Translations under genes and position numbers: made by a program
The notes under the pieces: model-generated
What the model was told of the DNA's origin: nothing
Seen by the model: only the letters and a program-made list of their open reading frames with translations
The model's database searches: none
In this document: positions 33,167 to 35,353 of the stretch, in pieces
Numbering within the stretch: the first letter of the stretch is position 1
How the letters are laid out: every line of letters begins with the position of its first letter
Sequence record: PQ330092
DNA length: 64,000 nucleotides
From: Escherichia phage JP4
Direction: 5' to 3' (one strand)

Positions 33167-33403
33167 ATGAAACTATCTTTTATACGTTTAGCAGAATTCT
33201 TCGGTACTGATATTATTACTTTACAACAAATTGCAGACAATACTTCATTAAGTACACAAGAAGTACTTGACTTGGATGTAATTAAGTGCGATAATACTTC
33301 CATCGATTACAAAGAAGGTCTTGTCGAAAAAGATAAGATTCAGGCTAAGATTAATGGTGCTGGACGGGTTCAGTACTGGAAAGGAGTATTAAGTAATGTT
33401 TGA
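33167..33403 (+). CDS. hypothetical protein
   Basis: 78-aa ORF. Confidence 0.5.
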   Translation: MKLSFIRLAEFFGTDIITLQQIADNTSLSTQEVLDLDVIKCDNTSIDYKEGLVEKDKIQAKINGAGRVQYWKGVLSNV

Positions 33404-34514
33404 ACAGTATTATTTAAATGAAGATGGTGAAAAAGTTTATTTTCATGAAGAACTTGGTATGCGTTTTGAATGGATGAAGCCTGAAGATATAAAAAGGGTT
33501 TCAAAAGGACTCACTGCTAAGGATCATGTTGATGACATAGAAGCAAAATTAAAAAACAAAGATATTGACAATATTACTATTATTGGATTATCAGTTAAAT
33601 CATCACGTGAGTTTGGTAAAAACGGAAATAGTAATAACAATTTACTGATTATGTATAATGGGGTATTGTATGATAATTATAAAATAACTGGTTTAAAAAC
33701 AAAGCTTGAAAAAATAACAAACAATAAATTCAAGCCATCATTTACCTATACAGATGAAAATTATTATTACTATGTAACCAAATTGGGTTCTCTTGAGGAA
33801 AGAGGATGCTATATATATGAAAATGAACATTTAGACAATGGGATAATGTCATATATTAAATTCACATATTCCGATGGATTTACACAACCACGAAGAATAA
33901 ATGATATAATTACAAAAAAATCAATGAACGTTAGATATTTTATAACACCTGAAATGCGTGAAACAATTGCTAACACACGCTGTAATGAACTAGGATATAC
34001 ATTAAAAGAAGTTTACAAGAAATCAAATGGTCGTTATTATGTAAAATATATATGTGATAAAGGACACGAGTGTAATCAAGACTATTATGCGTTTACTAGT
34101 AAACAAGCACAAAAATGTGGATGCTGTTCCCAATTAGAAACACACTCATTTGGTCATAATGATTGTAAAGAGTTTTTGAGAGGAATGTTTGTTACTGAAA
34201 GAGAGAAAACATTTCCTGATTTAAAAAATAAATCAAAACTTCCATATGATTTTTATATTCGTGATATTAATACGTTATTTGAATATGATGGTAGTAATCA
34301 CTTTGAAGAACGTGAATCAGGATGGGGAAACGGACTTATGAGGAAAAAACACGATAAAATCAAAACAGAATACGCAATAAAAAATGGATATAACTTCATT
34401 CGTATTGCGTATTATGAAGACCATATTGGAGCATTGAAATCTTTCCTTAAACTCATTGAAGAGAATCCAGGAAAGCAAATCGTGCAGATCTATGGTGAAG
34501 TACAAATTATCTAA
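33396..34514 (+). CDS. putative nuclease with C-terminal PD-(D/E)XK (DUF559/Vsr-like) domain
   Basis: C-terminal PYDFYI..LFEYDGSNHF..DKIK..GYNFIRIAY fits the D..E.K..GxxhhR signature; Cys cluster HECNQ..CGCC upstream. Confidence 0.5.
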   Translation: MFEQYYLNEDGEKVYFHEELGMRFEWMKPEDIKRVSKGLTAKDHVDDIEAKLKNKDIDNITIIGLSVKSSREFGKNGNSNNNLLIMYNGVLYDNYKITGLKTKLEKITNNKFKPSFTYTDENYYYYVTKLGSLEERGCYIYENEHLDNGIMSYIKFTYSDGFTQPRRINDIITKKSMNVRYFITPEMRETIANTRCNELGYTLKEVYKKSNGRYYVKYICDKGHECNQDYYAFTSKQAQKCGCCSQLETHSFGHNDCKEFLRGMFVTEREKTFPDLKNKSKLPYDFYIRDINTLFEYDGSNHFEERESGWGNGLMRKKHDKIKTEYAIKNGYNFIRIAYYEDHIGALKSFLKLIEENPGKQIVQIYGEVQII

Positions 34515-34521
34515 AACAAAA

Positions 34522-34554
34522 GGGTTGACTTCGGTCAGCCCTTTTTGCTATAAT
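34522..34554 (+). promoter_or_regulatory. fused terminator-promoter module
   Basis: gggttgacttcggtcagccc hairpin, T-run, TATAAT 18 nt after TTGACT; conserved leader catttcatc. Confidence 0.6.
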
Positions 34555-34582
34555 CATTTCATCAACTGAAGAGGGTAAAGAA

Positions 34583-35353
34583 ATGACCAGAGAAGCACGC
34601 AGCATTCAAATTCAGAAAAACTTCAACTCCATGATGGTTGCTCTTGAGTGTTTGCTCGATGATAGCAGTACTGTAAAAAGTATGGTTGTCAGTGGTGCTC
34701 CTGGTGTTGGTAAGACTTACACCTTGTCCCAACGTCTCCAGAAGGCTCATGACGCAGCAGAATGGAACGTAGCTACTATCAGTGGTAAGATGACTACACT
34801 GGCTCTGTACGAAGTTCTGTACAAGAATCGTCACAGCACCAACGTGTTAGTACTGGATGATATGGACAGCATCTTTGATTCTGAAGACGGTATGAACCTG
34901 CTCAAAGCTGTTTTGGATAGTGGTAAGCGTACTGTATCTTATATGACTAGCTCTAAGTACTTGAGCACTAACGGCATTCCTAATAGCTTTGATTTTAATG
35001 GTCGCATCGTATTCATTACTAACAAAGATTTAGCGTTAGATGCTAAAGCTAAAACTAAAATGTCTGCTCATTATGCTGCTCTTATGTCTCGTTCTGTGTA
35101 CGTGGATTTACAGATTCAGACTAAAAGTGATATCATGATTCATATTGAAAATGTAATGACTAAGACTAATATCCTTGCATCTAAAGGTGTTAACAGTAAC
35201 GGTAGTAAAGCAATTCTGAACTGGATGTTAAAACATGAAGATAATCTTCGTGCACCATCCCTGCGTATGCCTTTGTTGATTTCAGCAGTATATAACAACA
35301 ATCCGTATGATTGGGAAGAACAATGTGAAAACTTGTTCCTTGAGAAAATCTAA
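34583..35353 (+). CDS. P-loop NTPase (AAA-like ATPase)
   Basis: Walker A GAPGVGKT and Walker B-like VLVLDDMD. Confidence 0.6.
   Translation: MTREARSIQIQKNFNSMMVALECLLDDSSTVKSMVVSGAPGVGKTYTLSQRLQKAHDAAEWNVATISGKMTTLALYEVLYKNRHSTNVLVLDDMDSIFDSEDGMNLLKAVLDSGKRTVSYMTSSKYLSTNGIPNSFDFNGRIVFITNKDLALDAKAKTKMSAHYAALMSRSVYVDLQIQTKSDIMIHIENVMTKTNILASKGVNSNGSKAILNWMLKHEDNLRAPSLRMPLLISAVYNNNPYDWEEQCENLFLEKI

Follow-up and report, generated by a model that had tools for sequence, protein, structure and literature searches.

Several described phage systems resemble the locus analysed here, which lies in a stretch of 64,000 nucleotides (nt) from Escherichia phage JP4 (record PQ330092; this whole stretch is called the window) and centres on a nuclease gene, a small gene overlapping its start and the repeats that bracket both. 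The EDxHD homing endonuclease genes (HEGs), e.g. those for I-Bth0305I of Bacillus phage 0305phi8-36 and Hef of T-even-type phages, encode a Glu, Asp, x, His, Asp active-site set that corresponds to Glu25, Asp51, His64, His69 and Asp97 of Vsr, with a further acidic residue where Vsr has Phe62, i.e. two residues before the polar 'x' (PMC3239194). Intron-less homing is known for Hef as well as for the seg and mob genes of T4 (PMC2988022). In the T5orf172/CapR-type HEGs of ICP1 and other phages, which occur in 'HEG islands', CapR/DUF4379/DUF723 repeats are the DNA-binding modules, and these repeated CapR-like zinc fingers are joined to a nuclease domain at the end of the protein (Barth et al. 2023, PMC10448857). 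Finally, T4-type phages have PeSLs, repeats that combine a terminator with an early promoter and by which cassettes are shuffled (PMC2839356, PMC4122927). The locus in the window has features of all of these, and we take its nuclease gene, with a probability of roughly 80%, to be a free-standing HEG for an EDxHD/Vsr-like endonuclease with a CapR-type zinc finger, thus a mobile, selfish element of a known type (Table 1).

A first-pass annotation of the window had called this gene a PD-(D/E)XK-type nuclease of Vsr/DUF559-like character next to a P-loop ATPase, and both open reading frames (ORFs) hold on the plus strand, with 372 and 256 amino acids (aa), respectively. The AlphaFold2 model of the nuclease has a mean pLDDT of 84.5 and its catalytic domain is predicted to adopt a Vsr-like fold, as Vsr is the best match in a fold comparison, followed by RAP domains, VRR-NUC, TnsA and Hjc, although the sequence identity to Vsr is only 8%. 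PHROG profiles of families named HNH, homing or intron-encoded endonuclease match the protein with E values from 7e-24 to 2e-9, among them phrog 9084 and 7140, which are named homing or intron-encoded nuclease. The direct Pfam scan overlooked the nuclease, and its identity was recovered because structure and PHROG profiles match; the absence of any nuclease-domain hit, which the first-pass annotation had regarded as fatal to its assignment, was thus formally the outcome of the Pfam scan and was overturned by these two lines of evidence. The search proposed there for DUF559 and AAA families succeeded for the ATPase (see below); for the nuclease it gave weak matches to DUF559 (PF04480) in 5 of 17 family members (best E 6.7e-4) and none in the window protein, neither at E ≤ 1 for the full-length protein nor at E ≤ 10 for the domain alone. 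HMMER searches of PDB sequences, started from the protein and from profiles of the full-length family and of the C-terminal domain, reached neither 1vsr nor 3r3p, the latter showing no sequence similarity to the window nuclease detectable by this method; the matches they returned, i.e. FapC, designed Kelch-like SAKe proteins and ankyrins, were discarded as spurious.

The nuclease has few relatives, 23 among 5.8 billion proteins, and in alignments of 23 and 17 sequences E270, D285, E296, D298, H302 and D320 are invariant or at least 90% conserved, with a highly variable middle part of the protein. They make up the signature E270 ... D285 ... E296-Y-D298-G-x2-H302 ... D320, which reads as the Vsr/EDxHD type of active site: the spacing of 13 between D285 and D298 equals that between Asp51 and His64 of Vsr, and E296 lies two positions ahead of D298, as does the extra acidic residue of the EDxHD enzymes. 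The 'x' position is Asp (D298) in the window nuclease, unlike the Asn of the EDxHD HEGs it is compared with here. A canonical D ... (D/E)-x-K motif with catalytic Lys was not found, so that the type proposed in the first-pass annotation stands as far as Vsr-like is concerned, but not as canonical PD-(D/E)XK; likewise, the string 'D..E.K..GYNFIRI' on which that proposal was built was an imprecise description, with the catalytic signature beginning further upstream. The actual string is D320-KIKT-E325-YAI-K329-N-GYNFIRI, whose last part (aa 331-337) closes the catalytic domain.

Upstream of the catalytic domain the protein contains one degenerate repeat and one intact CapR-like zinc finger, a treble-clef module in which the Cys cluster already noticed in the first pass takes the form C220-x3-H224-x-C226...C241-x-C243-C244. 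The direct Pfam match to CapR (PF21817, aa 188-243) is weak (E 0.23), homologs carry one to four CapR/DUF4379/DUF723 repeats and are annotated accordingly (PF21817/PF14311/PF05265), and the allele of phage 121Q matches CapR with three repeats at E 2.6e-23. By analogy to the T5orf172 enzymes this module probably provides DNA recognition. The N-terminal module contains the stretch MFEQYYLNEDGEKVY..., which is kept in several homologs. The most conserved part of the family lies at the other end: the last 53 residues (aa 320-372; 34356-34511) have a mean pairwise identity of 0.71-0.83, compared to 0.61 in the strand region of the catalytic core, and the 32-aa tail within them (aa 341-372) reaches 0.71, compared to 0.34 and 0.19 in variable parts. 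Possible reasons for this conservation are dimerisation or recombination homology beside the right repeat.

The window nuclease thus resembles the EDxHD HEGs in being phage-borne, sporadic and bipartite, with a DNA-binding part followed by the nuclease, and it resembles Hef in particular in being free-standing at an intergenic position where other HEG types alternate. It differs from I-Bth0305I, which is intron-encoded; an Rfam scan revealed neither an intron nor any other RNA and therefore the window gene is considered free-standing. Its DNA-binding part is a CapR/DUF4379/DUF723-type zinc finger instead of the NUMOD/helix-turn-helix part of I-Bth0305I (there is no NUMOD match in the window nuclease, NUMOD/helix-turn-helix being a feature of the prototype and not part of the definition of the catalytic family), and it has the conserved 32-aa tail in addition to what is known from EDxHD HEGs. 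The likeness to the T5orf172/CapR-type HEGs (PMC10448857) extends beyond the fused zinc fingers to the shuffling of domains between alleles, the location of HEGs at boundaries of genetic exchange and their accumulation at one locus, two being present in a metagenomic relative described below, but the nuclease domain is Vsr-like and not of the GIY-YIG-like T5orf172 type. Our findings document Vsr-type homing endonucleases fused to CapR-like zinc fingers in jumbo coliphages, a single intergenic site that hosts a series of exchangeable endonuclease alleles, and T4-style (PeSL-like) terminator-promoter repeats that bracket variable cassettes. They are no new kind of biology, but they are useful for reading the mosaicism of therapeutic-phage genomes and improve annotation, since the nuclease gene is labelled 'hypothetical' in G17 and Sharanji, relatives are mislabelled 'HNH endonuclease' and the ATPase is mislabelled 'thioredoxin' or 'clamp loader'.

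The window belongs to an Asteriusvirus jumbo coliphage of the 121Q/PBECO4/G17 group. A megablast search with 31000-37000 gave Asteriusvirus Escherichia jumbo phages (G17, Sharanji, SP27, 121Q, PBECO4, phAPEC6 and others; 88-99% identity), and because no single record spans more than 66% of the query the region is a mosaic. Within it, the same nuclease gene (99.7% aa identity) is found only in G17 and Sharanji, and vB_Ec-M-J has an allele of 59.5% identity. Four of the 13 genomes examined, SP27, EC.P1, fEgEco12 and ph0011, have an empty site that lacks both the endonuclease and the 78-aa gene preceding it. In SP27 one repeat and the ATPase gene come directly after the gene that precedes the cassette, in the other three the ATPase gene directly follows denV, and throughout the denV-to-ATPase interval whole blocks are present or missing among relatives. 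Other endonuclease ORFs occupy the identical position in SHEFM2K, PBECO4, phAPEC6, slurp01, 121Q and vB_Ec-M-J; in the first five of these the 78-aa gene is followed by an endonuclease ORF of 379-628 aa that belongs to phrog_559/9084 or to phrog_681. The FYI...KAGIT sequence in the C-terminal region of the phrog_681 alleles hinted at a GIY-YIG/T5orf172 domain, which no Pfam match confirmed, and the phAPEC6 record annotates its own phrog_681 allele as 'exonuclease ABC C subunit'.

The borders between the alleles are sharp. In an alignment of eight genomes the DNA is near-invariant up to ...AAGGAGTnTTAAGTA and diverges exactly at the ATG of the endonuclease in seven of them; in 121Q divergence sets in a few bases before it and the endonuclease ORF begins after a gap of about 40 nt. 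Similarity is regained at 34515, i.e. at the right repeat, and in SHEFM2K already at 34362. According to BLASTP the N-terminal 91 aa of the nuclease are common to the PBECO4 allele only (42% identity, E 4e-17) and its C-terminal 109 aa to the SHEFM2K allele only (E 4e-29), the last 33 aa being identical; the domains are thus mosaic between alleles. A tail common to Vsr-type and phrog_681-type alleles, at which a MAFFT alignment had hinted, found no support in BLASTP and was dropped. Between window and G17 there are 17 nucleotide differences in 33099-33343, three in 33344-34857 and more than 40 in 34858-35468, i.e. the tract shared with G17 is 99.8% identical and its flanks only 92-93%. Further signs of recent transfer are an ATPase gene identical to that of the empty-site SP27 and a nuclease homolog of 45% identity in another gene context. 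The comparison suggests that the G17-type endonuclease has recently moved into a different backbone, where it would have replaced another allele, with recombination junctions in the last ~50 nt of the 78-aa gene and in the right repeat or near the 5' end of the ATPase gene. Close relatives thus differ in whether they carry the gene at this fixed site, a high-identity conversion tract is found as well, and the sporadic alleles and this tract in diverged flanks are therefore a signature of a free-standing HEG; the homing character, which the first-pass annotation had listed among its options, is borne out by these comparisons.

The 78-aa gene is assigned to phrog_34150 and yields no domain match in Pfam, NCBIfam and PADLOC scans; it occurs as a single copy in 28 Asteriusvirus records with 82-100% identity, and the protein forms only about 30 clusters (60-99% identity), none of them fused and all confined to this phage group. 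The version in the window is nearest to those of phAPEC6 and SHEFM2K. Its 3' ~90 nt are nearly invariant in the eight genomes, contain the AAGGAG ribosome-binding site of the nuclease and run into an 8-nt overlap of its stop with the nuclease ATG. Wherever the 78-aa gene is present among the 13 genomes, the ORF immediately downstream encodes an endonuclease of one type or another (both genes in nine, neither in four). The constant neighbour of the nuclease is the 78-aa gene, not the ATPase gene. The pair is also kept together in the more distant metagenomic relative L017 (contig SRR25434965_284841), where the 78-aa protein is 79%, the endonuclease 71% and the ATPase 57% identical and two other genes lie between endonuclease and ATPase gene. 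One of them encodes a second Vsr-type endonuclease (325 aa, three CapR-like zinc-finger repeats, LPYD...EYDGEQH...GFNFIRI motifs), whose gene is on the other strand than that of the first endonuclease; endonuclease genes pile up there.

The cassette of 78-aa gene and nuclease is bracketed by two copies of a composite repeat, of which the empty site of SP27 has one. Its 33-nt core, GGGTTGACTTCGGTCAGCCCTTTTTGCTATAAT, is exact in the right copy and has one mismatch in the left one; five copies with up to three mismatches are present in the window (0 expected, 100 shuffles) and seven with up to seven mismatches, all on the plus strand between 20.7 and 34.6 kb. The copies at 31163, 33108 and 34522 also have the leader up to the Shine-Dalgarno sequence in common. 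In each module a UUCG-loop hairpin is followed by a T-run (dG -13.9 to -20.7 kcal/mol, z -3.8 to -6.5), and homologous hairpins are annotated as terminators in the G17 record. The same sequence contains TTGACT, an 18-nt spacer and TG-n-TATAAT, matching the sigma-70 consensus at 11 of 12 positions. In the left module, whose hairpin is GGGTTGACTTCGGTCAGCC, the -35 TTGACT lies inside the hairpin arm and is followed by the extended -10 TGCTATAAT, a leader and a GAGG Shine-Dalgarno sequence. Judged from sequence and predicted structure, these are repeated stem-loop terminators over early sigma-70 promoters, with flanking insertions and deletions among close relatives, as in PeSLs. Each module is thus predicted to be a sigma-70-type promoter and an intrinsic terminator at once. 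The right one would end the cassette transcript and promote the ATPase gene; the left one precedes and would drive the 78-aa gene, and the nuclease, having no promoter module of its own, would be expressed via read-through and coupling. The identical promoter modules of the first-pass annotation are therefore real repeats, but they are also terminators and the left one does not directly precede the nuclease.

The modules resemble the PeSLs of T4-type phages in combining a terminator hairpin with an early sigma-70 promoter, in being repeated in an early hyperplastic region, in flanking cassettes that vary between close relatives and in being present as a single copy at empty sites. They differ in host group, i.e. 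Asteriusvirus jumbo phage versus Tevenvirinae, and in the position of the -35 element inside the hairpin arm; moreover, the module sequence is lineage-specific and not found in the more distant L017. In the literature searched PeSLs are described for T4-type phages and none was found for Asteriusvirus.

Based on these findings we propose that the HEG resides in the hyperplastic early-gene region, that transcription starting at the early sigma-70-type promoter in the left module reaches it through the 78-aa gene, and that its translation is probably coupled to this gene because start and stop overlap. During mixed infection the nuclease would cut a related genome without its own allele near the locus, and on repair from the HEG-bearing genome the cut one would receive the HEG together with short flanking stretches, as in the intron-less homing of the T4 seg and mob genes and of Hef. 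The PeSL-like direct repeats may in addition allow the cassette to be gained, lost and exchanged by homologous recombination without the nuclease, and the NrdC.10-like ATPase would act apart from the nuclease.

Table 1. Features of the nuclease locus, its neighbourhood and compared alleles (positions in the window unless another sequence is named)
Feature	Position	Strand	Remarks
Nuclease ORF, 372 aa	33396-34514	+	free-standing HEG (probable)
Nuclease N-terminal module, aa 1-91	33396-33668	+	C-terminal domain of the PBECO4 allele differs
CapR-like zinc-finger module, aa ~185-247	33948-34136	+	treble clef (predicted)
Vsr-like nuclease domain, aa ~255-340	34158-34415	+	predicted active site
Nuclease C-terminal tail, aa 341-372	34416-34511	+	helix and beta-hairpin; pLDDT 93-95
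78-aa gene	33167-33403	+	phrog_34150, E 1.3e-54
Left PeSL-like composite module	33095-33166	+	hairpin and T-run; dG -13.9 kcal/mol, z -3.8
Right PeSL-like module	34515-34582	+	direct repeat of left module; dG -17.6 kcal/mol, z -5.3
Copies of the 33-nt module	20697-20729, 23940-23972, 25465-25497, 26550-26582, 31163-31195, 33108-33140, 34522-34554	+	early-gene region
AAA+ ATPase, 256 aa	34583-35353	+	T4 NrdC.10 homolog, phrog_1250
denV homolog, 171 aa	31224-31739	+	pyrimidine-dimer glycosylase
HNH endonuclease, 137 aa	30756-31169	+	phrog_2255, E 1.8e-32; just upstream of denV
Orphan ORF, 203 aa	32485-33096	+	between degenerate module start (32440-32455) and left module
Tandem array of eight short ORFs	35421-38201	+	104-141 aa, hydrophobic
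phrog_681 allele of 121Q (L002)	6351-7814		no Vsr motifs
phrog_681 allele of PBECO4 (L005)	2801-3940		no Vsr motifs
phrog_681 allele of phAPEC6 (L006)	2801-4687		no Vsr motifs
Second Vsr-type endonuclease of L017	3552-4529	-	

A number of observations weigh against the assignment as HEG. The nuclease has no nuclease match in Pfam, NCBIfam and PADLOC scans, its Foldseek comparison with the PDB is not significant (best E about 0.1), and the equivalence of its catalytic residues to those of Vsr is inferred from conservation, order and spacing rather than from superposing the structures residue by residue. The analysis revealed no cleavage site or target of the nuclease, and with a complete module at both junctions it is not obvious that insertion would disrupt a recognition site. 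The search for the homing target via immunity polymorphisms between window and SP27 failed: the window and the HEG-less SP27 have a 100% identical ATPase gene, where no immunity polymorphism is thus visible, and show just two differences in the right module. Moreover, the mosaicism could stem from recombination at PeSLs or flanks alone, without any nuclease activity. In that case homologous recombination at the PeSL-like repeats and the conserved flanks would be the sole means of moving the cassette, and the nuclease would be a passenger or be otherwise employed, e.g. in degrading competitor or host DNA or in excluding co-infecting phages. This is in line with the ~70-nt direct repeats around the cassette and exactly one module at the empty site of SP27, with the similar boundaries of other cassettes in the region (g219 block, 203-aa orphan ORF, HNH gene), with the published mechanism of PeSLs in T4-type phages (PMC2839356, PMC4122927) and with neither target site nor immunity polymorphism having been found. 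The allele breakpoints, however, lie at the HEG start codon, i.e. inside the cassette and not at the left module, the high-identity tract shared with G17 starts at 33344 and not at 33095, and the catalytic residues are all maintained across the family. Transfer by recombination only is thus not very probable in our view, and both routes can coexist.

The small gene raises the question whether it forms a two-component unit with the endonuclease, in which its product would be a regulator, an inhibitor/immunity factor or a specificity factor. Perfect co-occurrence in the 13 genomes, the 8-nt overlap with the ribosome-binding site inside the small gene, the joint maintenance in L017, where both proteins are more conserved than the ATPase, and the joint presence of both on short metagenomic contigs are consistent with this idea, but the 78-aa gene is found once per genome and at this locus only, the protein has no domain match, and it may be a mere conserved landing pad or homology arm. 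In addition, a nuclease homolog of 45% identity lies in an entirely different gene context and lacks the 78-aa gene, so the nuclease family does not generally depend on it. We thus consider a functional two-component unit unlikely. More speculative still is the idea that the 78-aa protein is the dedicated partner of a docking locus, behind which interchangeable endonucleases with differing DNA-binding arrays and at least two C-terminal domain types plug in, small gene and HEG being a two-gene mobile unit. The 78-aa protein might then be an immunity factor or inhibitor that shields the genome carrying it, or else a subunit for targeting or regulation that the endonucleases have in common; if true, this would also account for the invisible immunity polymorphism in the flanks. 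Vsr itself suggests another function, i.e. that of a repair endonuclease working with the nearby denV in phage DNA repair, as Vsr is the best fold match and denV lies 1.7 kb upstream. Given the low identity to Vsr, the sporadic, allelic nuclease next to a conserved denV, the zinc-finger repeat layout typical of phage HEGs (PMC10448857) and the PHROG families of homing endonucleases, we give this hardly any credence.

The first-pass annotation's suggestion that nuclease and ATPase are a defence-related or DNA-processing pair did not survive. A two-gene defence, anti-defence or DNA-processing system of nuclease and AAA+ ATPase would fit the adjacency of the genes on the same strand behind similar promoter modules, but a terminator hairpin and a separate promoter lie in between, close relatives that keep the ATPase gene lack the nuclease or have another one in its place, the intervening genes of L017 break the adjacency and PADLOC recognises no system. 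PADLOC gave no match for the nuclease, only P-loop-level matches (E about 1e-3) for the ATPase and no defence system for either. Operon conservation, proposed as a check, fails as well, since the ATPase has homologs in 1,309 phage records (tblastn) and its gene had no nuclease neighbour in any of the six contexts that were inspected, i.e. those in T4-like, Klebsiella, Xanthomonas, Roseobacter and Vibrio phages and in SP27. Such a system is therefore very improbable. The ATPase itself was recognised correctly: Walker A (GAPGVGKT, aa 38-45) and Walker B (VLVLDD, aa 88-93) are present, with G38, G41, G43, K44, D92 and D93 invariant in 44 homologs, and the protein gives a full-length HMM match to phrog_1250 (E 2.8e-103). 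Walker motifs, AAA+ fold and about 38% identity to the Tequatrovirus protein, there named NrdC.10, mark it as NrdC.10-like; it differs from T4 NrdC.10 in lacking the N-terminal ~75 residues, the match starting at profile position 77. The gene lies among replication genes in three of five distant neighbourhoods, and the literature makes only passing mention of NrdC.10. The ATPase gene belongs to the conserved backbone and not to the mobile element, is no partner of the nuclease and stands behind the terminator with a promoter of its own; its adjacency to the nuclease is therefore an accident of insertion.

The surroundings of the locus (G+C ~33%, all genes on the plus strand as far as ~39 kb) contain further variable elements. 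The HNH gene upstream of denV is a second selfish element near the nuclease locus. A 414-bp ORF stands at its position in vB_Ec-M-J and fEgEco12, where it is annotated as HNH endonuclease, and in EC.P1 and ph0011, where it is annotated as hypothetical, and the gene is missing in G17, 121Q and SP27. The denV homolog has 171 aa in the window, G17, 121Q and SP27 and 144 aa in PBECO4, SHEFM2K and phAPEC6; the latter three also lack the next ORF (64 aa, 31778-31972). The 203-aa ORF before the left module has no match in Pfam, PHROGs, NCBIfam and PADLOC, nor did tblastn find one in 50,697 phage records. It is missing in every examined relative that has the segment, and looks like an orphan-gene cassette.

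Downstream of the ATPase gene, the short ORFs of the tandem array look, by their sequences, like small membrane proteins. Some copies share ~79% DNA identity (35421-35549 vs 35762-35890), and the copy number differs among relatives, the first copy being missing in PBECO4 and phAPEC6. Still further downstream, at ~39000-41000, genes switch from the plus to the minus strand and the cumulative GC skew has its maximum near 40 kb, which is the border between transcription or replication modules; in relatives RCC1-like genes lie on the minus strand.

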